Below are positions 16,419 to 64,000 of a stretch of DNA of 64,000 nt, one piece after another. A program made the position numbers and the translations under genes. Each line of letters begins with the position of its first letter. Position 1 is the first letter of the stretch. Origin of the DNA: a virus (taxonomy: Duplodnaviria > Caudoviricetes); the IMG/VR virus record IMGVR_UViG_3300009183_004565. One strand, 5' to 3'. The notes under the pieces are model-generated. The model did not search any database. It was not told the origin of the DNA and was given only the letters and a program-made list of their open reading frames with translations.

Positions 16419-16438
16419 AATCCTTTAGGAGTACTGTT

Positions 16439-16819: not shown

Positions 16820-18497
16820 GGTTTTGTTTTACCATGCAACTGATTCTTCGCCATCAACTGCTCAAAACAAAAAACTTTTTTTGTCAATAGCTGCCATTTA
16901 TCTAAAGACTCATTTAGAAATAAATCACCCAGACATAGCCAAGCAGATTGAGTGGTTAATACCGTTACAGCATAGATTGTCCGATGATGAATTATTGAAA
17001 ATATGCCATGAGCAACAACCAGATTTACTATGCACTAGTCATTATATCTGGAATCAATCATTTTTAACAGAACAACTTGAAAGAATTAAAAAAAAATTAA
17101 ATTCCTCTTGTAAGATATTAGCAGGTGGTCCTAGCATTGATGTTAATATTAATTCTAATTTTTTTAAAGATTATCCATTTATTGATTATGCTGTTTACGG
17201 TGCCGGCGAAGCGGCTTTTGCTGATTTAGTTTCCCATTTGATTAACAACAAAAAACTAGTTGCATTTAATGTTTCTAATTTGGCCTGGCAGGATAACAGC
17301 AAAACATTTATTTCTGATTACAAGTATGTGTCACAATCTAAAATTAGTCCTTTTTTATATAACGAAGATTTTTTTACAAAAATAGTTGAAAATGAATATA
17401 AAAATGATTATAAAATAATACTTCCATATGAGCTTACAAGAGGGTGTCCTTACTCTTGTACTTTTTGTGATTGGAACAGCGGATTAAGCACTAAAGTAAC
17501 AAGAAGAAAAGAAACATATAAACAAGAAATAGATTTATTTCAAAAGTTAAAAATACAAGACCTGTATCTTGCTGATGCAAATTTTGGACAATACGACGAA
17601 GACGTTGCCCTTGCTGAATATTTGGTACATAAAAATCTCAATGAGAATGCCGGATTTACAACAGAGTCAAATCCCAGTAAACTAAAAAAAGACAATAATC
17701 TTAAAATTTATCATTTATTTGCTAAAGGAAATTTAGTAAGCAAGCATTGGGGATTTACGTTTAGTGTGCAAGATATTAATCCTACAGTTCTAAAAAATAT
17801 CAATCGACCCGATGTGGGGTGGGATGTACATTTAGACATGATCAATGAATTAAGTTTACACTATCCTGATATACAACCTAAGGTACAATTTATATTAGGG
17901 TTGCCGGGCCAGAATAAAAAAACAATTAGAGAATCGCTGGGAGAAATTACAAAACATAATCTTCGTTTATGTTTATTTTTAAACGAATTACTACCGGCTA
18001 GTCCTGCTTCTCTTGACAAAACATACCAAGAGAAGTTTAAGTTTAAATATAGTAACAGTGAACGTTACAATGAATTTGGATATTTTAAAGGAAGTTTTCC
18101 TGAATCTTGTATATCATTTGATAGAGAAGAATTGGTAGAAATGATTATAATTGGTAGCTTTTATTCTGGCTTATCAATTTTACGTTTTAAAAGTGAATAC
18201 TTAAATATAGATATTGAACGTACAGTTGATCATTTCATTGAATCCAAATATTATAAGTTACTCAAAGAGGATTTACTAACAAATTGGATTAGCAATGATA
18301 AATTTTATTTCACTAAGAATTTTGATGGCAGTAAAAAAATTATTTCAGCCTGCTTACTACAACTTGCATCAGAAGAGTGGACAAACACAAAACAGTTTAA
18401 TTTAATGATAGCTGAAGTACATAACAATGACAGAGACTTTATAAAAAAACTCATCAAACAAAAAGCAATGCCAACTTGGTTTCCTGAAGCCCACTAA
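16812..18497 (+). CDS. B12-binding-domain radical SAM protein
   Basis: TRGCPYSCTFC (CxxxCxxC); N-terminal cobalamin-binding-like region (ILAGGP, YAVYGAGE); FILGLPGQ. Confidence 0.8.
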   Translation: MIKVLFYHATDSSPSTAQNKKLFLSIAAIYLKTHLEINHPDIAKQIEWLIPLQHRLSDDELLKICHEQQPDLLCTSHYIWNQSFLTEQLERIKKKLNSSCKILAGGPSIDVNINSNFFKDYPFIDYAVYGAGEAAFADLVSHLINNKKLVAFNVSNLAWQDNSKTFISDYKYVSQSKISPFLYNEDFFTKIVENEYKNDYKIILPYELTRGCPYSCTFCDWNSGLSTKVTRRKETYKQEIDLFQKLKIQDLYLADANFGQYDEDVALAEYLVHKNLNENAGFTTESNPSKLKKDNNLKIYHLFAKGNLVSKHWGFTFSVQDINPTVLKNINRPDVGWDVHLDMINELSLHYPDIQPKVQFILGLPGQNKKTIRESLGEITKHNLRLCLFLNELLPASPASLDKTYQEKFKFKYSNSERYNEFGYFKGSFPESCISFDREELVEMIIIGSFYSGLSILRFKSEYLNIDIERTVDHFIESKYYKLLKEDLLTNWISNDKFYFTKNFDGSKKIISACLLQLASEEWTNTKQFNLMIAEVHNNDRDFIKKLIKQKAMPTWFPEAH

Positions 18498-18505
18498 GGA
18501 GATAT

Positions 18506-18832
18506 ATGATCACACTGACAGAGATAGCTGCAAAGAAAGTATTAAAGCACATTGAGAAACGTGGTAAAGGTGTGGGTATTACTGTTGGTGTAAGAACCAC
18601 CGGGTGCTCGGGTCTCGCATATAAATTAGAATACGTTGACAATCCTCCGGTGACCCGTGATTGGTTTAAGTACGAAAGCCACGGAGTATCAGTATGGGTA
18701 AACGGTAAAGACACTCCTTATATCAATGGACTTACCATGGATTATAAACGACAAGGACTCAATGAAGGCTTTGAGTTCATCAACCCAAATGAAACAGCCC
18801 GATGCGGTTGTGGAGAAAGTTTCAAAGTATAA
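18506..18832 (+). CDS. iscA: A-type Fe-S carrier IscA/HesB
   Basis: ITLTExAA N-terminus, TGCSG, NPNETARCGCGESF. Confidence 0.95.
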   Translation: MITLTEIAAKKVLKHIEKRGKGVGITVGVRTTGCSGLAYKLEYVDNPPVTRDWFKYESHGVSVWVNGKDTPYINGLTMDYKRQGLNEGFEFINPNETARCGCGESFKV

Positions 18833-25876: not shown

Positions 25877-25885
25877 GAGAGAAAA

Positions 25886-27013
25886 ATGAGCGTATTCAAT
25901 ATTGATAATAAAACAGATCATACCAAGGCCTTGGCATTCTTGGATGAATCTGGTGCAGCACCCATACAGCGTTATGATGTATTAAAATATAGACAGTTTG
26001 ATAAACTGACAGATAAACAGTTAGGATTCTTTTGGAGGCCGGAGGAAGTAGATGTATTACGTGATGCAAAAGATTTCAAGGAACTGACTGATCATGAACA
26101 GCACATTTTTACAAGTAATCTTAAACGACAAATTCTTCTTGACAGCGTTCAAGGTCGCAGCCCCAATTTGGCTTTTCTCCCTCTTGCTACTATCCCTGAG
26201 CTTGAGACCTGGATCCAGACCTGGTCGTTTAACGAGACGATTCATAGTCGTAGTTACACTCACATTATACGCAATGTGTATAGTGATCCAAGTGCCGTAT
26301 TTGATCAGTTGACAGAGATTCCTGAGATACTTGATTGTGCTACAGATATTAGCAAATACTATGATGACTTGATAGAATATGCCGGTTATTATAAACTGTT
26401 GGGTTATGGTATTCACGAAGTCAATCATCAGACTGTTACAATTGATAGATACGAACTCAAAAAGAAGTTGTGGTTATGCTTGAATAGTGTAAACGCACTA
26501 GAAGGCATTAGATTCTATGTCAGCTTTGCTTGCAGTTGGGCATTTGCAGAGTTGAAAAAGATGGAAGGTAATGCTAAAATTATTAAACTTATTGCACGAG
26601 ACGAAAATGTACATTTAGGGTCCACGCAAACCCTTCTAAAATTGCTACCTCAGGATGATCCTGATTACGAGTTGATAAAACACGAAACTCGTGCAGAGTG
26701 TGAAGCAATGTTTTTACAAGCAGCAGCACAGGAAAAAGCCTGGGCACACTACTTGTTCAAAGACGGAAGCATGATTGGCTTAAATGAAGTATTATTAAGT
26801 CAGTATGTAGATTGGTTGACCTGTAAGCGTATGACAGCAGTGGGATTACAGTGTGGTATTAAAACAGGTTCGAATCCCTTACCTTGGACAGCCAAATGGA
26901 TTGCTGGTGCTGAAGTACAAGTGGCACCTCAAGAAACAGAAATTAGTAGTTATGTAATTGGTGGTACAAAACAAGATGTTGATCAAAACACATTCAAAGG
27001 ATTTAGCCTATAA
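25886..27013 (+). CDS. nrdB: Class Ia ribonucleotide reductase beta subunit
   Basis: [38 protein letters not shown]. Confidence 0.98.
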
Positions 27014-35056: not shown

Positions 35057-35135
35057 TGCTATAATACAGGTATAAATAATTGTGTAGGATGCTTCGGGTC
35101 CTATAAAACTTGCTTATTTTTAAGGAGAAACTATG
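35057..35135 (+). promoter_or_regulatory. dnaK leader: extended -10, late promoter, UUCG hairpin and ROSE-like SD-occluding hairpin
   Basis: TGCTATAAT 35057-35065, TATAAATA 35071-35078, gtaggat-g-c-TTCG-g-gtcctat 35084-35104, CTTGCTT 35109-35115 complementary (bulged G) to AAGGAG 35122-35127. Confidence 0.7.
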
Positions 35136-37019
35136 AGTACAATCATTGGTATCGATCTTGGTACCACCAATAGCTGCGTAGCAGTAATCGAAAACGGAAC
35201 CCCAAAAGTAATTGAAAATTCAGAAGGCGCACGTACTACACCTAGTATCGTTGCCTATACTGCTGAAGAGATTATTGTGGGAGCCGGTGCAAAACGTCAA
35301 GCAGTTACCAATCCAAAAAACACAATCTATGCGTCCAAGCGTTTAATAGGGCGTAAATTTACGGAACAGGCAGTTCAAAAAGATATTGATCTCATGCCTT
35401 ACAAGATCATCGAAAGCGCGAACGGCGATGCATGGGTGTCAGTCAACGACACGGAACTAGCACCTCCACAAATCAGTGCCGAAGTGCTTCGCAAAATGAA
35501 GAAGACCGCAGAAGACTATCTGGGTCATGAAGTAACACAGGCTGTAATTACTGTGCCTGCTTACTTCAATGACAGTCAACGACAGGCAACCAAAGATGCC
35601 GGAGCAATTGCTGGACTAGAAGTATTGCGTATTATCAATGAGCCAACTGCAGCAGCATTGGCATACGGAGTCGATAAAAATGAAAAAGCTGATCGCAAGA
35701 TCGCTGTGTACGATCTGGGTGGTGGTACCTTTGATGTTAGCATTATTGACATTGCTAATGTGGACGGTGATAAGCAATTTGAAGTCCTTTCCACCAATGG
35801 TGATACATTCCTAGGCGGTGAAGACTTTGACCAACGCATCATGGATTACTTGATCACTGAGTTTAAGAAAGAGTCAGGCGTTGATCTTGGTCGAGACGTT
35901 ATGGCACTGCAACGTCTAAAAGAAGCTGCAGAACGTACCAAGATTGAATTGAGTAACAGCACACAAACAGATGTGAACTTGCCTTACATCACAGCAGATG
36001 CTACAGGTCCCAAGCACATGAACATCAAGATGACTCGTGCTAAACTGGAAAGCCTAGTTGATGAATTGATTCAGCGCAGTATTGAACCTTGCCGTGTTGC
36101 AATGAAGGACGCAGGTGTCGTAGCCACGGACATCGATGAAGTTATCCTTGTTGGTGGTATGACACGTATGCCACGGGTTCAGGAAGAAGTTGAAAAGTTA
36201 TTTGGACGAGCACCACGTCGTGATGTCAATCCAGATGAAGCAGTAGCGGTTGGTGCAGCAGTACAAGGTGCTGTACTAGGTGGTAGCCGTAAAGACGTTC
36301 TATTACTTGATGTGACCCCACTAAGCCTAGGTATTGAAACCATGGGCGGCGTGATGACGAAACTAATCCAAAAGAATACCACTATTCCTACCAAGCATAG
36401 CCAGGTATTCTCTACAGCCGAAGACAACCAGCCGGCAGTAACTATCAAAGTCTATCAAGGCGAACGCGAACTTGTACAATATAATAAAACATTAGGTGAG
36501 TTTAATCTAGAAGGAATTCAACCTGCTCGACGTGGTGTACCGCAAGTAGAAGTCACGCTGGATGTTGACGCCAATGGTATTCTTAAAGTAAGTGCCAAAG
36601 ATAAAAGTACTGGCAAAGAAAACCGGATTACTATCAAGTCGGACAGTGGTCTAAGCCGAGAGCAGATTGAAGAAATGATTCGCGATGCCGAAGCTAATGC
36701 AGATGCAGACACAAAGCAACGTGAATTGATCGAAGTACGTAACCAAGCAGATGCAGTTGTCCACAAGATTCAAACTGATATGAAAGAAGCGGAAGGCAAG
36801 CTTTCGGAAGATCAGACGAAACAAATAGATGAGGCAATTGCCAACCTCAACAAGGCAATAGCAGAAACAGACAAAGAACTAATTACCACCAAGGTATCTG
36901 AGTTACTTGTTGCTGCGAATATTATTAATGAACTACAACAGCCGCAGACTACAGAAGAACAGCCCGAGCCTAAGGCCGATGACAATGTGGTTGACGCTGA
37001 ATTTAAAGAAACGAAGTAA
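35133..37019 (+). CDS. dnaK: Hsp70 chaperone DnaK
   Basis: [50 protein letters not shown]-terminal VVDAEFKE. Confidence 0.99.
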
Positions 37020-38371: not shown

Positions 38372-38917
38372 ATGGCAGATATTATGCTCGATATCGAAAC
38401 ACTTAGTACACGACCAGAATCGGTTGTGCTCACATTAGGTGCAGTCAAGTTCGATCCATGGGCCGATGAGGTAGACACAGAGTCTGGATTATATCTCAGA
38501 ATAGATGTTGACGAGCAACTGGCATTGGGTCGCCATGTGCAACAAGAAACAGTTGATTGGTGGGGAACGCAACCTGAAGATGTGCGTGAAGAAGCATTAG
38601 GTGAACACGAACGCACAAGTCTAAACAATAGCGTAGATCAACTCAACAGATTCCTTGTTGGCTCAAACAGTATTTGGTGCCAAGGTCCTGCATTTGATAT
38701 TGTTATTCTAGAAAACTTATATAGACAATTGGGTAGACCCACGCCTTGGCAGTTTTGGCAAATACGTGACAGTCGCACACTGTTTGGAGTACACGGAGAT
38801 CCAAGAGAAAAAGGTCGTACAGGTGCACACAATGCTCTCATTGATTGTTATTATCAGGCCCGAGCTGTACAGCATATATACAAAACAGTAGGAGTGAAGA
38901 AAAAAGAATGGACATAA
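38372..38917 (+). CDS. DEDD 3'-5' exonuclease (Rv2179c/DexA-like)
   Basis: MLDIETLS, GPAFD, IRDSRT, HNALID. Confidence 0.85.
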   Translation: MADIMLDIETLSTRPESVVLTLGAVKFDPWADEVDTESGLYLRIDVDEQLALGRHVQQETVDWWGTQPEDVREEALGEHERTSLNNSVDQLNRFLVGSNSIWCQGPAFDIVILENLYRQLGRPTPWQFWQIRDSRTLFGVHGDPREKGRTGAHNALIDCYYQARAVQHIYKTVGVKKKEWT

Positions 38918-39210
38918 TTTTTAGTAGAGAAGCTGCAAATCAGCTGGTGGACAGGTATGTGGTATTAGAATTAGAGCCACATAGTGTAGGTGAGGAAATA
39001 CTAGAAACTTTTTGTGTGGTTCCTGCAGATAAAATTCCTTTAGCAGAAACAGTAATGCTAGATCATTGGAAGAAATTGCACAGCGAGTTTGTTCAAGCAA
39101 ACAAAGAAAAGAATGGTAAATTATGCCAGGACCTGTCCGAACACCTGATGGGAAAATGGGGCAAGGAACTTGACGAATTCTACACAATAGTATGCAGTCG
39201 ATATAACTAG
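38908..39210 (+). CDS. Hypothetical protein
   Basis: Start taken at ATG 38908 (MDIIF), overlapping the exonuclease stop. Confidence 0.6.
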   Translation: MDIIFSREAANQLVDRYVVLELEPHSVGEEILETFCVVPADKIPLAETVMLDHWKKLHSEFVQANKEKNGKLCQDLSEHLMGKWGKELDEFYTIVCSRYN

Positions 39211-39244
39211 TTATTAAAAAAAGTTTATTCGAATACATATTATT

Positions 39245-39583
39245 ATGAATAAACTTTTGGCAGCTACCCTACTAGCATCCATAGCCGTGGCAGCTACAGC
39301 CACTCCTAGAACAAGACAGATACAGGTAATGTGTGGTAGTTTCGAAGATGTTGAAAAAACCATGGAAAAATATGGCGAAAAAATGGTAATTGCTACACAA
39401 GCTCCCGACGAACAAACTGTTAACATGGTATATGCTAATTTTGAAACAAAAACTACCAGTTGGTTTGTACACGATTTACGCACAGATGAGTATTGTATGA
39501 TGGGGGTAGGTAAAGAAATTTATATACCCGAGGATAGTCCATTAAAAGACGCCCCAATTGGAACAAGAACAAAATACAAATAA
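39245..39583 (+). CDS. Secreted hypothetical protein
   Basis: Signal peptide MNKLLAATLLASIAVAATA; two Cys. Confidence 0.65.
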   Translation: MNKLLAATLLASIAVAATATPRTRQIQVMCGSFEDVEKTMEKYGEKMVIATQAPDEQTVNMVYANFETKTTSWFVHDLRTDEYCMMGVGKEIYIPEDSPLKDAPIGTRTKYK

Positions 39584-39606
39584 GCCTGGTTATTCCAGGT
39601 TTTTTT
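39583..39606 (+). terminator. Intrinsic terminator
   Basis: gcctgg-ttatt-ccaggttttttt. Confidence 0.75.
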
Positions 39607-39628
39607 GTGGCTATAAAAGGAGCATATT

Positions 39629-39706
39629 ATGAGTTGGTTTGCACATAGACCCCCTAAGAATCCCCCAATACCCCCCGCACCGACCCGTCCCCCAACCAGA
39701 ATGTAA
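39629..39706 (+). CDS. 25-aa proline-rich micropeptide (not in ORF track)
   Basis: MSWFAHRPPKNPPIPPAPTRPPTRM; AAGGAG SD at 39617-39622, 6 nt before ATG. Confidence 0.55.
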   Translation: MSWFAHRPPKNPPIPPAPTRPPTRM

Positions 39707-39770
39707 TAAATACACGGTATTCGATAACTATTGGTTCCATCAATTATAACAACAGAGGAATCGAGAAGAC

Positions 39771-40550
39771 GTGGATCCGTTAACCCTGTTTGCCCTGGCA
39801 AACGGTGCTGTAAAACTTGTCAAAGAAGGTTGTAAGCTTTACAAGGATATCAAAGGAGCGGCCGGGGATATCAAAGATGTCCTCAAGGATCTTGACGACC
39901 AATTCCATACTACATTCAAAGACCGAGCACCTACTACAGCCGAACACAATCAGTACATTCAAGAAAAAAACCGCATCATCAACCTAAACAAACAGGATGG
40001 TGAAACAGCTAGTATGTACACACAGATTGGCGAACAGCTAGGTGTATACTTTGACAATCTTTATAAATGTCACGCAATATTTGAGGAAGAGGAACGCCGT
40101 AGCAAAACTGAAGTTTATCACGGTGAGGATAGCGTAGGTAAACGTGCTTTACAACGTGTACTACTCAAAAAGCAATTGGAAGCCATGGGGGCAGAGTTGC
40201 GTGAGATCATGGTGTATCAAAGTCCACCAGAGCTAGGTGCATTATGGACTGAAGTTCAGGCAATGATGGAAGTAGTTGGCAAAGAACAGGCAGTGGCAAT
40301 TGGTATAGAAATGAGAAGAAATGCCGAAGCTGCTCGTCGCAAACGCAAACACATGAAAAAGATCAAGTACAAAGTATTGTGTTGGAGCATGAGTTCCTTG
40401 GCTGTACTTTATCTGTGTTGGTTAATCTGGGCTGTTGTAGAAATTCGTGTTGCAGAAAAACCCGAACTTGGAAGATGTTTAATACCCAAAGGAACTCCTG
40501 GATATAATTGGTATAATAATTTAAAGTGGGTTGATTGCGATATCAAATAA
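39771..40550 (+). CDS. Hypothetical membrane protein
   Basis: MDPLTLFALANGA N-terminus, helical body, C-terminal TM helix; AATAAATA upstream. Confidence 0.65.
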   Translation: MDPLTLFALANGAVKLVKEGCKLYKDIKGAAGDIKDVLKDLDDQFHTTFKDRAPTTAEHNQYIQEKNRIINLNKQDGETASMYTQIGEQLGVYFDNLYKCHAIFEEEERRSKTEVYHGEDSVGKRALQRVLLKKQLEAMGAELREIMVYQSPPELGALWTEVQAMMEVVGKEQAVAIGIEMRRNAEAARRKRKHMKKIKYKVLCWSMSSLAVLYLCWLIWAVVEIRVAEKPELGRCLIPKGTPGYNWYNNLKWVDCDIK

Positions 40551-53446: not shown

Positions 53447-53599
53447 ATGACTAAAGCACAACGATTTGCAGACGAAGCAGTTTATATTTTGCAACTAAAC
53501 AGCCGTGACGCTGTGAAATATATTCAGCGAAATGCTGGCTGTGACGAAACAACTGCTACCGCAGTATTTAAAACTACAGTGGCTCCTTATAAGAAATAA
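53447..53599 (+). CDS. Hypothetical protein
   Basis: ATG 53447 after aagga SD; TAATG-coupled to the next gene. Confidence 0.55.
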   Translation: MTKAQRFADEAVYILQLNSRDAVKYIQRNAGCDETTATAVFKTTVAPYKK

Positions 53600-53841
53600 T
53601 GAAAATCTTAATAATTATTGCTGCAATACTGGCTACAGGATGTGCAACTGAGCACAGAGCCTCAACCCAGGACCTTCGTAATGTGTACATTGACTGTACT
53701 AATAGACAGGCATTTGAAAACTATTATAACAAACAATTGCGACTTACGGATACTGGCAAGGCAACCATAGATCCGGTAGAGCAGCAATATTATGCAGCGA
53801 TTAAAGAAAAACTTTGGACGCTGAGGACTGTATGCAAATAA
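53599..53841 (+). CDS. Lipoprotein
   Basis: MKILIIIAAILATG-C lipobox. Confidence 0.75.
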   Translation: MKILIIIAAILATGCATEHRASTQDLRNVYIDCTNRQAFENYYNKQLRLTDTGKATIDPVEQQYYAAIKEKLWTLRTVCK

Positions 53842-54158
53842 AATCATTCATCGTTACCGTTACAATTCTAGCAGTAACTGGATGCAGCACTACCACTACT
53901 GCCAGAATGGATTTTCAATCAATCAATCAGTTTCGGGTTAATTGTGCGAAAAAACAAGAGCAACTGGACTTTTTATACAGCCAATGGCCTAGCAAAAAGG
54001 ATCAGTTTTTAAATGCAATGATGATCCGTAGCGACACTGGATTTGTCATGTCAGTGGCAGATGATACGTATCAAGAACGTAGATACTTGGATGAAGGACG
54101 TTATACTGCAGTTCTGAGATTACTAATAGATCAGGTGAAACAATGTCCAAACTATTAA
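53832..54158 (+). CDS. Lipoprotein (similar Cys pattern to the previous gene)
   Basis: MQIKSFIVTVTILAVTG-C lipobox; gagga SD before ATG 53832. Confidence 0.72.
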   Translation: MQIKSFIVTVTILAVTGCSTTTTARMDFQSINQFRVNCAKKQEQLDFLYSQWPSKKDQFLNAMMIRSDTGFVMSVADDTYQERRYLDEGRYTAVLRLLIDQVKQCPNY

Positions 54159-54712
54159 TTTTGTTAGTAACAGCGGGTGTCTGCAGCTCTGCCATGGCAG
54201 AATGCTACATGCGCTCTGCTACAGTTAAAGAATCCAAATCCACGGTTACAAGAATTGCAGACATCAAGCGTTATGTAACTCCTGTGGATGCAGAGCATTT
54301 TAAATGTACCGTGGGATTTAGAGCTGAAGTTAACCATGTGTGGCAAACCGGCGAAGGGCAAAGTATCGGAACTAACGGTGACAGCATTGATACTGTATGT
54401 ACCCAAGCACTAGATTCCGCACGTAGTTATTTGTTGGCCCGAGTCAGTAATGGTAAAATGTTAAATGAACAAGAAATGATTTGTACAGATCGCCCGGATC
54501 CAGAAGTCAAGTCCGTTAAAATTGGCGATATAGTACAGATATCAGAATTGGCACCACATCCACAAAAACCTGATTTCTTTGCGTATCGTGGAGCTCAATG
54601 TCGTTGGTTTGTAGAAACGGATGTCAATTTAGCAGCCAGAGACCTTTTTCAATGGCAAGGTATTGCCTGTAATGTGCGAAAAGGTGAATGGCAAGTGATT
54701 GACAAATTTTAA
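54143..54712 (+). CDS. Secreted Cys-rich protein
   Basis: Signal peptide ending AMA-E; six further Cys. Confidence 0.65.
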   Translation: MSKLLILLVTAGVCSSAMAECYMRSATVKESKSTVTRIADIKRYVTPVDAEHFKCTVGFRAEVNHVWQTGEGQSIGTNGDSIDTVCTQALDSARSYLLARVSNGKMLNEQEMICTDRPDPEVKSVKIGDIVQISELAPHPQKPDFFAYRGAQCRWFVETDVNLAARDLFQWQGIACNVRKGEWQVIDKF

Positions 54713-54727
54713 TCAACCTGTTATAAT
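54699..54727 (+). promoter_or_regulatory. Consensus sigma70 promoter with extended -10
   Basis: TTGACA-17 bp-TATAAT with TG; ATG 6 nt downstream. Confidence 0.85.
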
Positions 54728-54733
54728 ACAGCT

Positions 54734-54868
54734 ATGAATAAATTATTCCTAATTATAGTATTTGCAGCAACAGCGTTCGCTACCGGCTGTTCTACGGTAG
54801 CAGGAGCCGGTAAAGATATTACTAGCGGCGCCGAATATGTTCGTGATAAAATTGGAGGTAGTAAATGA
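54734..54868 (+). CDS. Entericidin EcnA/B-like lipopeptide (44 aa, not in ORF track)
   Basis: MNKLFLIIVFAATAFATG-CSTVAGAGKDITSGAEYVRDKIGGSK matches the EcnA/B C-x-T-x-x-G-x-G-K-D-I pattern. Confidence 0.75.
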   Translation: MNKLFLIIVFAATAFATGCSTVAGAGKDITSGAEYVRDKIGGSK

Positions 54869-55431
54869 AGAAGTTTCTAGTCCTGGTTCCTGTAGTTGCA
54901 GTCCTCGCTGCCTGTGGCACGACAGAAAAGTTTGAAAAGCGCACTGAGCAGATTACCGAGCGTCAAGAGAAGCTGGCGGAACGTGCAATTGACAAGGCTC
55001 CCAAGTGGATGACGCAACTGCCAGAATCTAGTGCCGCTGTGTATGCCAATGGTAGCGCAGTTAGTCGTGACTTTAGCATGGCCGATGAAAAGGCCAAACT
55101 GGTTGCACTTGGTAAGATTTGTACTGCAGCCGGTGGTGAAGTAGACAAGCAGAGCAAGATGTTCTTGAGTGACACAGAAGATACCAGTGTTGAGCGCAGT
55201 GAGAGTGCTATACGTTCCATGTGCCGCGGTGTAGATGTATCGGGTACCGAGATCATTGAAGTTAAACGTATTGCAGAAGGTGCACGTTTTAGGTCGTACA
55301 TTCTAGTTAGTTTACCCATGGGAGAAGCTAATCAACTGGCAATACGTAACGATCGTCGTCGAGCGGCAGCAGGTACCAAAGTACGTTCCGATCGAGCATT
55401 TGACGAAATGGATGCCAACAACAAACGATAG
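54865..55431 (+). CDS. Lipoprotein (LPP20-like)
   Basis: MKKFLVLVPVVAVLAA-C lipobox; APKWM..YANGSA..A..KA..AL pattern. Confidence 0.7.
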   Translation: MKKFLVLVPVVAVLAACGTTEKFEKRTEQITERQEKLAERAIDKAPKWMTQLPESSAAVYANGSAVSRDFSMADEKAKLVALGKICTAAGGEVDKQSKMFLSDTEDTSVERSESAIRSMCRGVDVSGTEIIEVKRIAEGARFRSYILVSLPMGEANQLAIRNDRRRAAAGTKVRSDRAFDEMDANNKR

Positions 55432-55444
55432 TAGCATTTTAAAC

Positions 55445-55470
55445 AAAAATGCCCTTCGGGGCATTTTTTT
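55445..55470 (+). terminator. Intrinsic terminator
   Basis: aaaaatgccc-TTCG-gggcatttttttt. Confidence 0.92.
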
Positions 55471-55510
55471 TGACAAAAACTTCTTAAATTCAAATACCAC
55501 TAAATACTAG

Positions 55511-56512
55511 ATGCGCTTACACGAAATTTCACAAAAGACCAAATATCGCCCAGAAGTATTCCTGGACATGGACGGTGTTCTAGCCGATTTCTTCTCAGAA
55601 TATGCTGTACTAGCCGGATTACCCCCAGGCAGTAGCTATAGGGAAATCCCCCCAGCTAAAAGTGATCCTACCTTGAACAAAATGATAGGCACTGACTTCT
55701 TTTACAGATTGCCTAAGTTTAGTACAGCGGACGCACTAGTGGCAATGGTAGTAAAGTTCTTTGGTGGATACAACATCTGCTCAAGTCCGTTACGTGGAGA
55801 CCATGAAAATTCAGGCGTACAAAAAACACGTTGGATTCAACAACATCTAAATCCACAACCCCAACACATTTACATAGAATCACGTAAAGAACGATATGCA
55901 TTACAGCCCGACGGTACACCCAATATCCTAATTGATGATCGTAAAGACAACATCATTAGATGGGAAGCGGCTGGCGGTGTGGGTATCAAGTATCAAGCAG
56001 ATGAAGATGGGCTAGATGTAATTGCTCGAGGTTTACGTCGTGCATTGGAAATATATAAAGGGCGGCGTGAGCAGGATCAGTTGCCGTTAACACCAAGTTT
56101 GGATCGTGGGGCTCCGGTAGCAACGGCCCAAGATCAACAGGTTAAAGAAAGTACTGCAAGCGATCATGAAGAACGAATTCGTCATTTTATGCAGTGGTGC
56201 AAGCATAAGTTAAAACTAGAACAAGAATTACCCGACATAGAATTCAGTGACGAAAAAGACAGTGAAGGCATGCACCATACCGGTTACTATAATGATCAAG
56301 AAGATAAACTATGGGTCTATACCGGTAATCGTAATCTAATAGATATACTACGCACAGTGGCACATGAATTTACCCATCGTAAACAAGATGAACAAGGTAG
56401 AATTGATCCCGATCAATCTTATCCCGGCAGTCCAATTGAACAAGAAGCAGATGCAGTGGCCGGATACCTAATGAAACTTTACGGTAAAGAATATCCGGAG
56501 ATTATAGAATGA
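55511..56512 (+). CDS. Fusion: HAD 5'(3')-nucleotidase plus zincin-like metallopeptidase
   Basis: FLDMDGVLADF and LIDDR (HAD); after the VKE linker, AHEFTH...EQEADA (HExxH); TAAATA 4 nt before ATG. Confidence 0.8.
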   Translation: MRLHEISQKTKYRPEVFLDMDGVLADFFSEYAVLAGLPPGSSYREIPPAKSDPTLNKMIGTDFFYRLPKFSTADALVAMVVKFFGGYNICSSPLRGDHENSGVQKTRWIQQHLNPQPQHIYIESRKERYALQPDGTPNILIDDRKDNIIRWEAAGGVGIKYQADEDGLDVIARGLRRALEIYKGRREQDQLPLTPSLDRGAPVATAQDQQVKESTASDHEERIRHFMQWCKHKLKLEQELPDIEFSDEKDSEGMHHTGYYNDQEDKLWVYTGNRNLIDILRTVAHEFTHRKQDEQGRIDPDQSYPGSPIEQEADAVAGYLMKLYGKEYPEIIE

Positions 56513-57207
56513 GGTCGGATGATTTTGTAGCAGGTAATGTAGATTATCACGAAGAACTAAGCCCAGCTGCCTGGGACGGCGACGAGCTACGTACCGACGT
56601 TCGTGTTCACTTGCTACGTGCCGCAAAGTTTTTTACTGCTTATCTTGAGATTCCAGGATTTCGAGTGTATGATGTTGTACTAACAGGCAGCATGGCCAAT
56701 TACAACTACACAAAATTTAGTGACTTTGATCTACATGTGGTCACACGTTACGCAGACCTAGAGTGTGATGATCTTGCTGAAGCATTTTATCGTGCTAAAA
56801 AATCTATATGGAATGATGCACATGACATTACTATTCGTGGTCATGAAGTAGAACTGTATGTTGAGGATGTTGACAATCCTCCAGTCAGTTCGGGCATGTA
56901 CAGTTTGTTGTCTGGCACATGGATCAAGGAGCCCGAATACTCCGCGCCTACAGTGGACAATACTGCCATCAATGCCAAGGTACGTGATCTAATTAAACAA
57001 ATTGATGTTGCTATAGCACAGGCCGATGACCCCGAAGACATCAAACGTATCACAGACAAACTGAGAAAGATGCGTCGATCAGGCCTAGATACTGCTGGCG
57101 AGTTTGGCGTAGAGAATTTAACATTCAAGATACTACGTAACCTAGGTTATCTAGATGCATTAAATACAGCATTCCATAATGAACAAGATCAGGATTTAAG
57201 TTTATGA
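56509..57207 (+). CDS. Pol-beta-superfamily nucleotidyltransferase
   Basis: LTGSMANY..SDFDLH and ELYVED triad. Confidence 0.75.
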   Translation: MRSDDFVAGNVDYHEELSPAAWDGDELRTDVRVHLLRAAKFFTAYLEIPGFRVYDVVLTGSMANYNYTKFSDFDLHVVTRYADLECDDLAEAFYRAKKSIWNDAHDITIRGHEVELYVEDVDNPPVSSGMYSLLSGTWIKEPEYSAPTVDNTAINAKVRDLIKQIDVAIAQADDPEDIKRITDKLRKMRRSGLDTAGEFGVENLTFKILRNLGYLDALNTAFHNEQDQDLSL

Positions 57208-60086
57208 GATATAAAGAATTCAATTTAACTGAAGATGAGTTGTTTGAGCTCAAAATGAGTCCAAGCAATCTTAAGAAGATGGCCGCAGAAACCGGTGCAG
57301 TGGCCGGCATAGAATTTGAAATGTATGTGCCCGGTGCTGCCGAAGCCGACGAAGACGATTACGAAGTTGAACCAGACTATGAAATGGACGAAAGTTTTCC
57401 AACTGGTCGTGGTTGGCGTCAGGAGGTGATAGATTTCTTTAGAGGTGGCGATTATGGCAGTACTCGCAGCACAATCCAACGTGCCCTTGATAACCTAGAT
57501 GAAGATTACTGGTCATGGAAGGATGAAAACTTTGAGGAATGGTTCAATGACAATGACTCATTGCTAGACAACTATCTCAGAGAAGAACTTCCACAGGACC
57601 CAGATGAAAGTGACGACGAATACACAGAACGATTGGGCAGCGACGATGAAGAAGTCCAACAGGCACGAGAGCGGGCCATGGAGCGAATGCGTGAGGAACA
57701 CCAAAGCGAAGATCAATGGGAAGATTTCTTACGAGATCAAGATATTGGATCCATGTTGGACTTCGGTAACCGAGAGAGTCTTGATTGGCCCTATGTCAAC
57801 TATCCCGAAAGCAGTGGTGGCAGCGTAGATATCAGTGATGTTGCTAGCGATTTTCAATCAGCAATTGGTCGCAGAGTCAAATCAGGTAGTTACCACAGTG
57901 GTGCTGGCAGTCAAACCGATAACTATCGGGTAGAACCAGATGGCAGTCTCACTGATCCCAACGATTCATATGATGGTGGCCTTGAATTTATCAGTCCTCC
58001 ACTGCCATTGGCTGAAATGTTATCAGACTTGGAAAAGGTAGTCAAATGGGCCGCTCGCAACGACTGTTATACCAATGACAGTACCGGACTGCACATGAAT
58101 GTCAGTGTACCTGGCTTTGAACTCAACAAACTTGATTATGTCAAACTGGCTATATTCTTGGGCGACGAATATGTATTAGATCAATTTGGTCGTGCCGGTA
58201 ACACCTACTGTGCCAGCGCCATGGAAAAGATTAAAAGTATTGCCAGGACTCAGCCAGATAAAGTCAAGACTATGCTGCAACAGATGCAGGGTAATCTAAG
58301 TGCTATGGCATCCAAGATTGTACACACTGGCACTACAAGCAAATATACCAGTATTAACACCAAAGATGGCTACATTGAGTTTCGTAGTCCAGGAGGTGAC
58401 TGGCTGGGAGAATATGCTGCTGATCCTGGTAAGATTACCAATACTCTACTACGTTTCACAGTGGCGCTTGATGTTGCCATGAAGCCAGAAGCATTTAGAC
58501 AAGAGTACATGAAGAAGTTGTACAAGACTTTATCACTGGGCGAAAGTGATGACACTATTCAATTCTTTGCACGTTATGCTGCCGGCGCCTTACCACAGTC
58601 GGCCCTGAAGAGTTTTGTCAAGCAAGCACAAATACAGCGTAAAGCTAAAAAACTACTGCCTGGCGCAATCAAAGGACAACAATTAATTCAGTGGCAGGCC
58701 ACTTCAGGTGCAGCTACCGCTACTGTTGTGGCACGTACCGAAGAGGAAGCAAGAAAGAAAGCTGCCTTCAATATTGGTATTCCGTTCACTGACAGTGCTA
58801 TAGACCGAATGGACATACAGCCCTTGGATCTTTATACCGGGCCAGTTAACAAATACAGAATCATTAGAGACTCTAACGGAGCCGAACTAGACACCATCGA
58901 AGGTGTTGACGAACGCGATGCTATCACAAACTTCCGAGTAACTAAACCCCATTGGACCACTGATATAACTGCTCGATTGGTAACACCAAATCAATCTCCT
59001 CCAGATTATCCGGCAGCGACCAGTAACACACCGGGTTCGTGGACCATCATGAATCAATCGACTCGTAGAATGTTACAAGGCGTTGGTGGCACATTCATTT
59101 ATGCCTCCCAAGCAGCAGCAGAGATAGCCATGGGTAACAACATACGTCGTGCAGATATCCGTATCATAAACACCGACAATGGTCAGGTCTATGACATTGA
59201 CGGACGTCCTACTAGATACAATACCGGCACAGAATCAAACACTTCAAGTCGTGATCAAGAGTTTACTGGCACTTGGGAAGTTGTAAGTAGACCCACTGAT
59301 GAAGTTGTATATACCATAAGTGGTATAGGTAATGCGGTTTCTGATGCAGAAAGATATGCAAATAGATGGGTTGATCAAACAGGATTTAGTGATCCTGTTT
59401 ATGTGCGTCCACAAATGCAGCCAAGATCCACGGGTGGCGGCGGATTTGACCGAGCACCACATACCAGCATATATCAATTGGTTGATAATAGAGATGGTAG
59501 AATATTACTAGGTGGCGAAACACGAACTTTTGCCTACACTGTTGAAATGGCTGGTCTTGCGATTCGTAGTTATGGTGTTCCTTCCGGCGATATTAGAATT
59601 ATTGATATGGCTACCAATCGTTCTTATAACATAGATGGTTCACCTGCTAATACATCTGCACCAGCAGCACAAACAGAACAACTTTACAATGTTAGATGGA
59701 CAGATGAAAATGGCGAACACGATGTAAATCGTAGAGCTCCTAATGCCAATGCTGCCATGGAGGATGTGCGTAACAGTTTAGAAAGCGGCAGATTTAGAGT
59801 AATTTCTATAGAAGCCAACCCTATAGGATCAAACACCGGTGATTCTACTCCTATTCCTGGTTCTACCATGGACCGAGTTCAACAACGAGCACAAGGATCG
59901 GAAAGTTTACCACCAGGTAATGCACGTTGGTTGATACTGGATCGCAATAACCAAGAAGTATATTCGTTTATTAATACCACAACACAAAGCGATGCCAATC
60001 AGTATGCAAGGAATTGGCTGCTTAATACTGCATCGGCTGAAGTTAGAGACCGCGGCCCATTTGATATATTACCGGTGTCAAGATGA
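57204..60086 (+). CDS. Putative amidoligase (COOH-NH2 ligase type 2) with acidic N-terminus and repeated C-terminal modules
   Basis: GIEFE, EPDGS, GLEFISPPL, STGLHMNVS, KYTSIN, YIEFRSPG; about 7 degenerate beta-beta-alpha repeats after residue ~490. Confidence 0.7.
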   Translation: MRYKEFNLTEDELFELKMSPSNLKKMAAETGAVAGIEFEMYVPGAAEADEDDYEVEPDYEMDESFPTGRGWRQEVIDFFRGGDYGSTRSTIQRALDNLDEDYWSWKDENFEEWFNDNDSLLDNYLREELPQDPDESDDEYTERLGSDDEEVQQARERAMERMREEHQSEDQWEDFLRDQDIGSMLDFGNRESLDWPYVNYPESSGGSVDISDVASDFQSAIGRRVKSGSYHSGAGSQTDNYRVEPDGSLTDPNDSYDGGLEFISPPLPLAEMLSDLEKVVKWAARNDCYTNDSTGLHMNVSVPGFELNKLDYVKLAIFLGDEYVLDQFGRAGNTYCASAMEKIKSIARTQPDKVKTMLQQMQGNLSAMASKIVHTGTTSKYTSINTKDGYIEFRSPGGDWLGEYAADPGKITNTLLRFTVALDVAMKPEAFRQEYMKKLYKTLSLGESDDTIQFFARYAAGALPQSALKSFVKQAQIQRKAKKLLPGAIKGQQLIQWQATSGAATATVVARTEEEARKKAAFNIGIPFTDSAIDRMDIQPLDLYTGPVNKYRIIRDSNGAELDTIEGVDERDAITNFRVTKPHWTTDITARLVTPNQSPPDYPAATSNTPGSWTIMNQSTRRMLQGVGGTFIYASQAAAEIAMGNNIRRADIRIINTDNGQVYDIDGRPTRYNTGTESNTSSRDQEFTGTWEVVSRPTDEVVYTISGIGNAVSDAERYANRWVDQTGFSDPVYVRPQMQPRSTGGGGFDRAPHTSIYQLVDNRDGRILLGGETRTFAYTVEMAGLAIRSYGVPSGDIRIIDMATNRSYNIDGSPANTSAPAAQTEQLYNVRWTDENGEHDVNRRAPNANAAMEDVRNSLESGRFRVISIEANPIGSNTGDSTPIPGSTMDRVQQRAQGSESLPPGNARWLILDRNNQEVYSFINTTTQSDANQYARNWLLNTASAEVRDRGPFDILPVSR

Positions 60087-60994
60087 GAGCTAGCGAATTC
60101 GTAACAGAAGCACCACGTGACGTATTCCACTTCGTTGGGCATAGTCCTGCTGTTCCTCGCCCCACTGGAAATTATTACAAATGGCGTGTGAGTCTCAGCA
60201 ATGGTCAATACTATCATGTTAGAGCCGGTGCACACACTGACTTATCAAAATTCCAACAATACTTCACACGTAAATGGGGCGCAGAAATGCCCGATGTTGA
60301 AGCAGTGAAAGCCGAACGTTTAGAAAGACTCAGCGAACAAGATGTAGATGAAATGGCTGGCGAAATACACGGCGGGGTCAGGAAAGCCTTGATGGACAAA
60401 GGCTACAAATATCTAGGCAGCGGTATTGACAAGCAAGCATACCTAGAGCCAGGTACCGGACAGGTGTTGATCATATTTGGCTATCGCAAAGGTCAAAAAG
60501 ATTTCAGTCCTGATCAACGTATGTTTATAAACTGGATAAACTACTGTAATAAGAATCAGTCTAACCCACATTTACCCAAGTTCTCAGGATTTGAAAGTTT
60601 CAAATTCCAAGGCAAAAACTATATTCAAGCAAGAATGGAACCACTGCAAGAGTTACCTGATGAAATAGGATATCTAGTTGGACATGCTGATGAAGTTATA
60701 AAGAAACGCAAAACAGATTACAAAAAAGAACTCAAAACAATGTCACAGTATGCTATGCATACGTTTAATGACGAAGGCGGCGGTACATGGTATGAGTTAA
60801 AAGACGTCGTAAAGCATTTGGGTGGTAAAAAGGCAGCAGCGAATTTACTAAACACAGTGTATGATGTCAAACGTTTTGGACGTAAGCAAGGATACTCAAT
60901 TGATTTACACAAAGGAAATTATATGCAACGTGCCAACGGTACTATTGTGGTAAATGATCCTTTTGTATTATGGTTGAGGGGGATGCTAGATTGA
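60083..60994 (+). CDS. Protein-kinase-like domain protein with N-terminal extra module
   Basis: YLGSG Gly loop, HLPKF, RMEPL, DLHKGN catalytic loop, VNDP. Confidence 0.7.
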   Translation: MRASEFVTEAPRDVFHFVGHSPAVPRPTGNYYKWRVSLSNGQYYHVRAGAHTDLSKFQQYFTRKWGAEMPDVEAVKAERLERLSEQDVDEMAGEIHGGVRKALMDKGYKYLGSGIDKQAYLEPGTGQVLIIFGYRKGQKDFSPDQRMFINWINYCNKNQSNPHLPKFSGFESFKFQGKNYIQARMEPLQELPDEIGYLVGHADEVIKKRKTDYKKELKTMSQYAMHTFNDEGGGTWYELKDVVKHLGGKKAAANLLNTVYDVKRFGRKQGYSIDLHKGNYMQRANGTIVVNDPFVLWLRGMLD

Positions 60995-61641
60995 GAGCTA
61001 CTGAATTCATAGCAGAAGGTAAAAATACTCCAGTCATAGTAGTAGATGTTCAACCTGCCTATGTACCGTATGGGCCACAAGTATGTGAACGCATAGTGCA
61101 ATTTGTAAATAATCAAACAGGTCCCGTATTAATGTTTGTCAATGCTGAACGAGATGGAATGACCAATGATACCATTGATGATGTATTGTCTTATTGGGAA
61201 GAAACAGCAGCAGAGAATGATCCTGATTGGTATGACGATAATCCATTTGCACCAAGAAGTCCTGTAAATTGGAATCGTTTTCATATAGTAGACAAAGGGT
61301 ATGGTTGGTTTAGAACTTGGATGGATCAAGGAGTGCAACCAAAATTCATAATACAGTTGATTCGTTACATGTATCAGCGTAGAATAACCGACATTCGTGA
61401 TGACATTGATGGTGTTTATGAATATATGACACACAATCCCACAGGAGGCCAAATTGTTGATTGGCAGGATTGGATGGAAGATGAATCCTTTACAATCAAT
61501 TGGACCAGTGTAGCACAACTAAAAAGATTTAATGGATCTTATATAGTAGGCGGTGGTAGAGATGAATGCTTGCGTGAAGTCGAATTACTCATGAATGCAT
61601 TCAATATAAAATATAGAAGAGTGGATAGTTTGATTTACTGA
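60991..61641 (+). CDS. Isochorismatase/cysteine-hydrolase-like protein
   Basis: VIVVDVQP and IVGGGRDECLRE; TTG start (TTGA overlap, gagggg SD) gives MRATEFIAE. Confidence 0.55.
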   Translation: MRATEFIAEGKNTPVIVVDVQPAYVPYGPQVCERIVQFVNNQTGPVLMFVNAERDGMTNDTIDDVLSYWEETAAENDPDWYDDNPFAPRSPVNWNRFHIVDKGYGWFRTWMDQGVQPKFIIQLIRYMYQRRITDIRDDIDGVYEYMTHNPTGGQIVDWQDWMEDESFTINWTSVAQLKRFNGSYIVGGGRDECLREVELLMNAFNIKYRRVDSLIY

Positions 61642-62258
61642 TGAGAGCTAAAGAATTTATCACTGAAATAGATCGTAGAGGATTCCTAGGAGCACTAGGA
61701 GCTGGTGCTATGGCTGCTGCTGGAGTTCCTGCCGAAGCAAAATCCAAGAAACCAGAGCCAATGGCATTTTTAAGTGCCCACATGGAAGCAGAAGAAATGT
61801 TACACAAGACTGCTCTAAATTCCGGAATGCGTGGTACAGAACTGGCACAATTTTTAGCACAATGTTACCACGAATCTGCCGGCTTTGCTCGTATGCACGA
61901 ATATGCTAGCGGTGCAGAATACGAAGGACGTCGTGATCTTGGTAATGTAAACCGGGGCGACGGGGTGAGATACAAAGGACGTGGCTTTATACAGATCACC
62001 GGTAGAGATAACTATCGTCGTGCTGGACAAGCCCTGGGCTTGCCACTAGAAGAACGACCTGGATTAGCCAGTAGACCTGATGTTGCTGCACGGATTGCTG
62101 TATGGTATTGGGCAAGTCGTGTTAGACCCAATGTTGCTAACTTTAATGATACTCGTGCAGTTACACAACGTATCAATCCCAAACTAAATGGGCTAGCTGA
62201 TAGACACGAAAACTTTAAAGATTATAAAAATATGTTTGTTGCAACAAGGACAAGATAA
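61641..62258 (+). CDS. GH19 lysozyme/chitinase with twin-arginine signal
   Basis: FLAQCYHES, YEGRRDLGN..GDG.RYKGRGFIQITGRDNY, INPKLNGL; N-terminal DRRGFLG + hydrophobic + AEA. Confidence 0.88.
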   Translation: MRAKEFITEIDRRGFLGALGAGAMAAAGVPAEAKSKKPEPMAFLSAHMEAEEMLHKTALNSGMRGTELAQFLAQCYHESAGFARMHEYASGAEYEGRRDLGNVNRGDGVRYKGRGFIQITGRDNYRRAGQALGLPLEERPGLASRPDVAARIAVWYWASRVRPNVANFNDTRAVTQRINPKLNGLADRHENFKDYKNMFVATRTR

Positions 62259-63499
62259 TGAGAGCAAAAGATTTTGCACTAGAAGCAAAGCCGCTAGCAC
62301 CACTAGAAATACCAACACCAGCACAGTCCACAGTTGAAAAATCTGTCAAAATGGCCAATCATATTGACAAAGTGCTTGACCAATACGAAATTAAAAAATC
62401 AATTATTCAACAAGAAATAGACCGATTAAAAGATCAAATTGAATCACTAAAGTACGGCCCACCCGAAGGATCAACTGTAACACAGAAAGGTCGGGGATGG
62501 GTCGGTAGAGATAGAGAAGGACACCCAATTGGCGGCGGTCCCGTGGACGAAGCATTTGACCAACCTTATGACATGAGCTGGGAAAAAGGTGAAGCTGGCG
62601 AAGATTACGATGCACTGGTTCGACTACCCGATGGGTCTAATCTTTCCATAATGTTTAACGAAGAAGGTCCTGGTCAGTACATGGTTGAGTTCTGGAGAGG
62701 CGCTGAACAATCAGTTACTGGCGAAGGCGACGCACAAAGAATATTTGCCACTGTGTTAGCAGCAATAGCCAAATTTATACAACAACATCAACCACAATCA
62801 ATCGTCTTTTCTGCACACAAAGAAGATGATCCGGAACAAAAATCAGACAGCCGCAGTAAATTGTACAATAGATTAGTGCAGCGGTATGCCGGTACTATAG
62901 GTTATAGTTATCGAAGTTGGGATACTGGAGACAGTGTACAATATGAACTGACTAGATTAAAGCCGGGTGTAGCGGAAAGCAGAGAAAACTTCAATGGTAT
63001 AGATATCTCTCTTGAAATACAGAAAGATGATGAATATGTCGATGATGAAGATTATGATAACCAGGTAATATATGTTACTGCTAGTAGCAACGGTAGAGAA
63101 TTGGGTCATGTGTTATTTGCGTTTGATGGTGAATATTTAATGCCGCAGGATTTAGAAGTTGAAGAACGCTTTCGTGGTCAAGGTATTGCTCAAACAATGT
63201 ACGATTATGTAAAGAGTAAAGGATATAAAATTCGCCGTAGTGGACAACAAACTGATGCCGGCGCTGGATTTTGGGACAAACACAAAGGTCAAGGACAACA
63301 TGTCTGGGAGCAAGGTGTAGTGGAAAATTTCGCTGATGGCAAGGTCAAAGGTAAAAGCCGTCCAGGTCGGGTCAAACGTGCAGGTGCCAGTTGCAACGGA
63401 TCAGTCACTGACCTACGTCAACGTGCAAAAAATGCATCAGGTGAACGAGCCAAAATGTATCACTGGTGCGCTAACATGAAAAGCGGTCGTAAGAAATAA
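62258..63499 (+). CDS. Multi-module protein including a GNAT acetyltransferase domain
   Basis: LEVEERFRGQGIA acetyl-CoA motif and AGAGFW; modules separated by PVDE, GVAE, GVVE. Confidence 0.65.
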   Translation: MRAKDFALEAKPLAPLEIPTPAQSTVEKSVKMANHIDKVLDQYEIKKSIIQQEIDRLKDQIESLKYGPPEGSTVTQKGRGWVGRDREGHPIGGGPVDEAFDQPYDMSWEKGEAGEDYDALVRLPDGSNLSIMFNEEGPGQYMVEFWRGAEQSVTGEGDAQRIFATVLAAIAKFIQQHQPQSIVFSAHKEDDPEQKSDSRSKLYNRLVQRYAGTIGYSYRSWDTGDSVQYELTRLKPGVAESRENFNGIDISLEIQKDDEYVDDEDYDNQVIYVTASSNGRELGHVLFAFDGEYLMPQDLEVEERFRGQGIAQTMYDYVKSKGYKIRRSGQQTDAGAGFWDKHKGQGQHVWEQGVVENFADGKVKGKSRPGRVKRAGASCNGSVTDLRQRAKNASGERAKMYHWCANMKSGRKK

Positions 63500-64000
63500 A
63501 TGAACCAATGCATTGATCATAATATGCATGATATAATTTCCCAATTGGACTTTGATCCTAAGAATCCTTTTGATCTAGATACTGATATTGTTCCCGAACG
63601 TTTTGTTCAAGGATTTTATAGTACATATTTGCTGAGTTGTTATACTGGTGATTACAATGCTACAATAGTTTACCCAGCAATCCTAAATAATTTAAAAACT
63701 AAACAATATGAACAATATATAGGATCATTTAATCAACAAGAAAGAGAACAGCTTTATCAATACTTTGATAAAATGATACAGGATGAAACAGAACACACTG
63801 ATCAGTTTTTAATTATGCTTAATAAAATAAATCCTCAAGACATTGACCTAAACTGTTTAAAACAAAACGCTCAATGGATGATAGAAAATACCAATCTAAT
63901 AAAGTTATTAGCAAGAATTTATGTTGCAGAATGTTACGTTTGGGTATCTTTTTTTCAAATATATAAAACTAGTACTAGTGATGATAAAAAACGTATTTTT
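63500..64000 (+). CDS. Ferritin-like (diiron) protein, 3' truncated (not in ORF track)
   Basis: Frame open from ATG 63500 to the window end; IQDETEH (D/E-E-x-x-H) and YVAE helices. Confidence 0.45.
   Translation, partial: MNQCIDHNMHDIISQLDFDPKNPFDLDTDIVPERFVQGFYSTYLLSCYTGDYNATIVYPAILNNLKTKQYEQYIGSFNQQEREQLYQYFDKMIQDETEHTDQFLIMLNKINPQDIDLNCLKQNAQWMIENTNLIKLLARIYVAECYVWVSFFQIYKTSTSDDKKRIF

Follow-up and report, generated by a model that had tools for sequence, protein, structure and literature searches.

A capsid-targeting-type leader directly followed by a putative twin-arginine signal on a GH19 hydrolase of a tailed phage

A 64,000-nucleotide stretch of tailed-phage DNA (IMG/VR record IMGVR_UViG_3300009183_004565), regarded as that of an uncultured giant T4-like phage and hereafter called the window, encodes at 61641-62258 (+) a protein of 205 residues in which a leader resembling the capsid-targeting sequence (CTS) of phage T4 internal proteins is directly followed by a putative twin-arginine translocation (Tat) signal, a linker, and a GH19 lysozyme-type catalytic domain. 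On the basis of sequence comparison, it is tentatively proposed, as the best supported of the explanations considered, that removal of the head-targeting leader uncovers the Tat signal, and that the GH19 enzyme would be packaged, cut, injected, and exported by Tat to the periplasm of the new host. Packaging of some kind is considered likely. A wider version of the proposal, put forward with more reserve, is that T4-like jumbo phages may relay two labels, a leader removed by the prohead protease uncovering an export signal for the host machinery, of the Tat type or, in certain lineages, Sec-like, by which injected proteins would reach the periplasm. Proteins that phages inject, for instance anti-restriction factors and enzymes of host takeover, are usually viewed as tools for the cytoplasm. 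If the proposal is true, a phage could use the Tat machinery of its host to place finished enzymes in the periplasm moments after infection, and injected periplasmic effectors would form a class of which the GH19 muramidase is one member.

Leader, export signal and GH19 domain on one chain

The 205-codon open reading frame (ORF) begins at the earliest start codon past the preceding in-frame stop, with its ATG overlapping the TGA of the gene before it. Its first nine residues, MRAKEFITE (61641-61667), resemble the N-terminus of the T4 internal proteins IPII and IPIII (MKTYQEFIAE) and end in I-T-E, in agreement with the L/I-x-E rule of the T4 prohead protease gp21. In T4, the first 10 residues are enough for packaging, gp21 cleaves after L/I-x-E, and CTS fusions reach the interior of the infected cell, while Asp at the position of the leader-end Glu stops cutting and leaves targeting unaffected (PMC9026906). 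Conservation was determined in 60 homologs with 55-89% identity to the window protein, in which the columns of M1, E5, and E9 reached at least 90%. M1, R2, E5, F6, I7, and E9 are conserved, and the retention of E5, F6, I7, and E9 next to the variable positions 4 and 8 implies that the constraint acts on the peptide. The pattern M-[RK]-x-x-[DE]-hydrophobic-x-x-E starts five ORFs of the window, as compared to 0-1 in 20 shuffles. Four of these ORFs lie inside a gene cluster at 55511-63499, in which the gene at 57204 additionally begins with a near-match. The remaining one (15993-16406 (+), MRIRDVIVE) is distant from the cluster and located just upstream of an iscU-like gene.

The leader is followed by residues 10-33 (61668-61739), which comprise I10-D11, the motif R12-R13-G-F-L (RRGFL, 61674-61688), a hydrophobic region (h-region) from G14 to V29 (61680-61727), P30, and A31-E32-A33 (61731-61739), after which K34 is predicted to be the first residue of the mature periplasmic protein. 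Tat signals are characterised by a Gly-rich and Leu-poor h-region with a helix breaker at its end and by a core resembling S-R-R-x-F-L-K, of which the twin arginines are bound by TatC at the cytoplasmic face (PMC7317946). The h-region of the window protein, for which a minimum of 12 residues was required, consists of 16 uncharged residues with 69% Gly plus Ala (five Gly, two Leu) and a mean Kyte-Doolittle value of 1.58, and the D-R-R-G-F-L-G core fits the Tat motif. Moreover, NCBIfam model TIGR01409 scored 17.7 bits on the protein (cut-off 16.7) and matched 49 of the 60 homologs at E <= 0.01. R12, R13, F15, L16, and A33, the -1 Ala of the AxA site, are invariant in all 60, and mean column identity amounts to 0.77 in the Tat signal and 0.75 in the GH19 domain, versus 0.47 in the variable Lys/Pro-rich linker (residues 34-46; 61740-61778). 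A signal that is conserved to the same degree as the catalytic domain, with an invariant -1 Ala, speaks for actual export and for actual cleavage by signal peptidase.

Other readings of this segment were rejected. A lipoprotein signal is incompatible with the absence of Cys from the signal, and a signal-arrest-release (SAR) endolysin, in which the anchor stays uncleaved, would fit the Gly/Ala-rich segment alone and is contradicted by the invariant AxA, the variable linker after it, and the invariant twin-arginine core. An internal start that would give a leaderless Tat precursor is contradicted by the codon for residue 10, which is ATA, and by several lineages with a buried signal and no Met at the junction.

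The GH19 catalytic domain (61779-62255) was recognised by Pfam PF00182 (Glyco_hydro_19; E 6e-11, 43 bits versus a cut-off of 25.5), and the solved GH19 endolysins 7r6s, 9ms7, and 4ok7 in the PDB matched the protein at E 1e-18 to 1e-23, the best solved relatives including phage endolysins. Two Glu residues in the domain, E78 (61872-61874) and E87 (61899-61901), are invariant in the 60 homologs and are what we take to be the catalytic Glu pair of the GH19 family. In an AlphaFold2 model based on the same homologs, residues 41-205 were predicted with a local distance difference test score (pLDDT) of 85-97 and residues 1-40 with a pLDDT of 43-52, and the first 40 residues are therefore regarded as an appendage outside the fold. 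The original prediction had read residues 1-40 (61641-61760) as a leader, an RRxFL motif, an h-region, and an AxA site on a GH19 hydrolase; this order of elements was found exactly as described, and the identity of the hydrolase was confirmed by the profile and structure matches. The pool of metagenomic homologs comprises 1720 proteins at E <= 1e-5, and as the architecture is encountered in many metagenomic contigs, it is not a one-off.

Protease-type sites ahead of the signal in homologs

For a wider comparison, the best 120 homologs were combined with the query to a set of 121 proteins, 98 of which bear the RR motif. A [LIVMFA]-x-E motif ends 2-6 residues before the RR in 98 of these 98 proteins (2-3 residues in 94), while such a motif occurs in approximately 10% of the control windows taken from the mature portions; because the homologs are related, the 98-of-98 count overstates independence. 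The signal is buried in 28 of the RR-bearing homologs, in which it occupies a position between residues 26 and 167 and is preceded by unrelated modules of at least six kinds, including a cytidine deaminase and module A of the window gene at 60083-60994. In loci from IMG/VR, the GH19 domain is the final module of polyproteins of 400-1587 residues with amidoligase, deaminase, GNAT, or GGACT domains, and a hydrophobic-x-Glu site is found each time directly before the RR signal or before a hydrophobic segment of the GW[KR] type. Indels between close relatives coincide exactly with these hydrophobic-x-Glu junctions. For example, a module of 111 residues is inserted between the leader and LVNE/IDRRGFL (the slash denotes the candidate cleavage site) in a 356 kb JGI contig, L100. 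A chain that unites enzymes acting in the cytoplasm with a wall hydrolase, and that has an export signal between them, would be logical if it is cleaved at these junctions.

The original prediction held that cleavage after the leader would expose the Tat peptide and would allow re-export of an ejected enzyme. The sequence part of this claim is upheld by the T4-CTS-like leader, by the gp21-type protease in relatives (described below), and by the hydrophobic-x-Glu site before the signal in all RR-bearing homologs, including those with a buried signal; the subsequent route is retained as a tentative proposal. By analogy with T4, the leader would dock the precursor on the prohead core, like the CTS of the T4 internal proteins, after which a gp21-type prohead protease would cleave behind I-T-E9. 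The packaged form would then begin with I10-D11-R-R, that is, as a Tat signal with a two-residue n-region. Following ejection with the DNA into the cytoplasm of the next host, the protein would be present as a ready-made, post-translational Tat substrate, its RRGFL motif would be bound by TatBC, and the enzyme would be exported. Finally, cleavage by signal peptidase I after A-E-A33 would set the muramidase free in soluble form in the periplasm, at an early stage of infection. The arrival of the injected protein in already made form would explain the use of Tat over a co-translational route. Candidate roles in the periplasm are wall loosening, either at the entry site or ahead of a very large burst, and interference with rival phages.

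Several considerations weigh against this proposal. The Pfam model PF10518 (TAT_signal) scored 16.6 bits on the GH19 protein, which is under its cut-off of 22.7. Some family members (P0029, P0095, P0111, and L013) combine the leader with the GH19 domain and lack any hydrophobic signal, and others carry a non-RR signal, so that export by Tat is not a property of the whole family. Tat signals in the interior of a chain can work uncleaved in dual Sec-Tat membrane proteins (PMC3471235, PMC5449189), and a buried signal alone is thus no proof of proteolytic exposure. The protease, capsid genes, and lysis cassette of the phage represented by the window are inferred from its relatives, and export by Tat would presuppose a Tat system in the host. 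Moreover, we know of no benefit of an early periplasmic muramidase.

The same arrangement could serve lysis of the producing cell. The uncut precursor would then be exported late by Tat, with MRAKEFITEID as a long n-region, to act as a holin-independent or auxiliary endolysin, and the shared leader would have arisen incidentally, through recombination of cassettes or through translational coupling. Secreted and SAR endolysins exist in other phages, the nine extra residues leave the Tat signal near the N-terminus where it could work uncut, and the ATGA overlaps leave the initial codons only partly free to vary. This explanation is difficult to reconcile with stable lineages that place modules of 55-320 residues, or polyproteins of up to approximately 1400 residues, before the signal, and in which the junction always has a protease-type site and no internal Met start. 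It is also at odds with the conservation of the leader as a peptide (E5, F6, I7, and E9 retained, positions 4 and 8 variable), and a soluble, cleavable muramidase that is exported once made would risk early lysis. Together with the gene context discussed below, these observations make a role as producing-cell lysin rather unlikely. Alternatively, the precursor might have a dual fate, part being packaged and cut and part being exported by Tat in the producing cell, so that the protein would serve as virion cargo and as lysis helper. Both signals look functional in the short-leader form of the window, but a dual fate is inapplicable to the many homologs with long upstream modules and is considered improbable.

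Some members of the family display further variation. The 1183-residue polyprotein of L017 (4983-8534) contains a second buried Tat-like signal (VDE/DISRRNFV...) at residues ~615-650, before an uncharacterised domain, as well as a GW[KR]-type signal before its GH19 domain. The GH19 ortholog in L037 (from relative G007; 9533-10453) contains a segment that by eye looks like a wall-binding one of the LysM type between the Tat signal and the catalytic domain, and its leader ends in Asp, not Glu.

Head, lysis and hub genes in relatives

Orthologs with 67-82% identity to the window GH19 protein were found in G001, an IMG/VR contig of 192 kb that is approximately 55% complete, and in G002. Both contigs, as well as the more distant G007, encode members of Peptidase_S77, the T4 gp21 family (87-96 bits), and of Gp23 (330-332 bits), and the gene order in G001 is portal, small core protein, acidic core protein, protease (16248-16886), scaffold, and capsid. 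No head genes were found in the 64,000-nucleotide window. The nearest cultured phages according to the capsid protein (~66%) are Vibrio phage 2.275.O and Pseudomonas phage PA5oct of the Arenbergviridae. PA5oct contains two leader-bearing proteins (MKINDIITE and MKIKDILVE) that are annotated as virion proteins detected by mass spectrometry. PF00182 had no match in PA5oct and the window protein had none in Vibrio phage 2.275.O, and there is thus no isolate for the leader-Tat-GH19 feature among these closest cultured phages. No match was obtained when 55000-64000 was compared at the nucleotide level with 50,697 phage records, or when these records were searched with the first 50 residues by tblastn, in which the low-complexity filter may mask the h-region.

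The relatives contain a separate endolysin. In G001, G007, and the complete 354 kb genome G011, a second, signal-less GH19 protein of ~204-211 residues is encoded next to a spanin-like membrane protein and a small lipoprotein, and G002 contains a matching second GH19-like ORF of 228 residues. This signal-less endolysin family is highly conserved, the best 120 of more than 8000 matches displaying 78-99% identity. Because relatives hold this separate signal-less GH19 endolysin with spanin-like genes, the window GH19 is probably not the main endolysin. No holin or spanin genes adjoin the window GH19 gene, of which the neighbours encode leader-bearing enzymes; the absence of lysis partners, the occurrence of the same leader throughout a cluster of cytoplasm-acting enzymes, and the separate canonical lysis cassette in relatives all argue against lysis of the producing cell. 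The alternative offered in the original prediction, a plain Tat-secreted and holin-independent endolysin, is accordingly weakened by the cargo-type cluster and by the conserved signal-less endolysin and spanin-like genes of the relatives. In the lysis cassette of G011 (L097), a leader-bearing gene of 126 residues (MKINEIITE; 1895-2275, minus strand) is located between the two spanin-like genes.

The hub genes bear on another explanation, in which the GH19 protein is packaged and cut likewise but exits the tail straight into the periplasm before the DNA and cuts the wall for penetration. The hydrophobic segment of such an entry lysin would be a membrane anchor or a relic and not a Tat signal. 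The T7 internal core protein gp16 and the T4 tail-tip lysozyme gp5 act as entry wall hydrolases. G001 (38570-40084, L121) and G002 (L122) encode a gp5-like baseplate hub of ~504 residues, and many other relatives contain hub-GH19 fusions of 700-1090 residues (L049-L080). No muralytic domain was recognisable in the G001 hub sequence, and the G001 and G002 records contain no third GH19 match and no match, in the hub or elsewhere, to Phage_lysozyme (PF00959), which was found in none of the contigs of five relatives. With no evident wall enzyme in the hub, the cargo GH19 of these phages could serve wall penetration at entry. The members with a leader and a GH19 domain but no signal, described above, also favour this possibility, and a role in breaching the wall during invasion has been proposed for the lysozyme domains of polyvalent proteins (Iyer et al. 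2017, PMC5512222). However, direct release into the periplasm would need neither the invariant RR-x-F-L core nor the invariant signal-peptidase Ala, and TatC reads the twin arginines at the cytoplasmic face (PMC7317946). Moreover, G011 carries three GH19 proteins together, i.e., a baseplate-hub fusion, the endolysin, and a leader-GGACT-signal-GH19 protein, and the cargo enzyme is therefore no simple substitute for the hub enzyme. Taken together, an entry lysin is regarded as unlikely.

Known systems, the cargo cluster and its surroundings

The proposed packaging and subsequent Tat export can be compared with several known systems. The T4 internal proteins (IPI, IPII, IPIII, and Alt, with their CTS and gp21) share with the window protein a short leader with an E-F-I-x-E core that ends in L/I-x-E, tandem fast-evolving genes with unrelated cargo, and, in the relatives, a T4-type portal, core, protease, scaffold, and capsid. 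The leader in the window differs in being one residue shorter and starting with MR, its cargo is a predicted periplasm-acting enzyme with a complete putative Tat signal after the predicted cut site, and the relatives string their cargo into polyproteins. Polyvalent proteins of phages and conjugative elements are injected effectors built from several domains, in which unrelated enzymes are brought together, among them lysozyme domains and a zincin-like peptidase, a picture to which the 400-1587-residue polyproteins of the relatives conform. The paper that describes them makes no mention of signal peptides, and the role that it proposes for the lysozyme domains is one at entry (PMC5512222). The proteins described here differ in that their modules are bounded by sites of the prohead-protease type and in that the GH19 module opens with an export signal.

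Secreted and SAR endolysins, such as P1 Lyz, R21 of phage 21, and Lys44 of Oenococcus phage fOg44, also have an N-terminal Gly/Ala-rich hydrophobic export segment on a muralytic enzyme, but they use Sec and are encoded by lysis-cassette genes, whereas the window GH19 protein has a twin-arginine core, an invariant AxA, a position in a cargo cluster, and a separate endolysin in relatives. Virion-borne wall hydrolases, including T4 gp5, T7 gp16, and phiKZ gp181, are carried in the particle, as is proposed for the GH19 protein, and T7 gp16 is moreover an ejected internal head protein; these enzymes reach the wall from the outside and have no export signal. A parallel in logic is offered by the bipartite transit peptides of thylakoid-lumen proteins, in which a first address is cut off by a protease, uncovering a Tat signal for the second membrane step in the chloroplast. 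These belong to a eukaryotic organelle and are unrelated in sequence, and the likeness is one of analogy only. Literature searches yielded, among the papers examined, no natural phage endolysin with a Tat signal, the top-listed of these papers referring to Tat only by analogy or as an engineered fusion, and no paper on export signals of phage head cargo or published description of the feature reported here. The idea is directly testable in the existing T4 packaging-and-delivery system.

The GH19 gene is part of a cluster of seven overlap-coupled genes (55511-63499, +) that encode unrelated enzymes, five with a full or near-full leader. The products are a zincin-like HExxH protein, a nucleotidyltransferase, an amidoligase, two proteins of no assigned function, the GH19 protein, and a GNAT protein. 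The whole cluster is syntenic in contig L100 and is also shared with G001. The gene directly preceding GH19 (60991-61641, +) has a TTG start and begins with MRATEFIAE, in which EFIAE equals the end of the T4 IPII/IPIII leader. The gene at 60083-60994 (+) contains a DVDE/M junction (60341-60352) between two modules that are split in relatives: module A is joined straight to Tat-GH19 in homolog P0007, and in G001 (154530, minus strand) a leader is directly followed by module B on its own. Candidate junctions are also present in the 413-residue GNAT protein (62258-63499, +), namely PVDE/A (62540-62551), GVAE/S (62966-62977), and GVVE/N (63314-63325), and its L100 ortholog of 814 residues has ~265 extra residues precisely between two VAE sites. 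A basic NFADGK...HWCANMK module closes the GNAT protein and is seen again as the terminal part of polyproteins of relatives (L011, L013, L022, and L033). The first gene of the cluster (55511-56512, +) had no Pfam family match; its zincin-like HExxH motif, HEFTH (56363-56377), recalls the metallopeptidase proposed for the processing of polyvalent proteins.

The T4 late-promoter octamer TATAAATA was not enriched in the window (4 found versus 6.9 expected), and only CTAAATAC precedes the first cluster gene, 3-10 nucleotides from its ATG; a 'late operon' is therefore not relied on. A consensus scan of the plus strand inside the cluster revealed no convincing sigma-70 promoter or terminator. Directly upstream of the cluster (53599-55431, +), four successive small genes encode proteins with lipoprotein-type signals (LATGC, VTGC, AGVC, and LAAC). 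The last of the four genes possesses a perfect sigma-70-like promoter at 54699-54727, and a hairpin terminator lies after it, near 55446-55470. Elsewhere, regions at 16439-18832, 23573-27013, and 35133-37019 (+) contain genes for Fe-S assembly, ribonucleotide reductase, and Hsp70. The Fe-S assembly genes encode IscU (NifU_N) and an IscA-type protein, the large subunit of a class I ribonucleotide reductase is encoded at 23573-25876 (+), and the adjacent ORF of 376 residues (25886-27013, +) occupies, by position alone, the place of nrdB. The window also encodes a full Hsp70/DnaK protein (851 bits).

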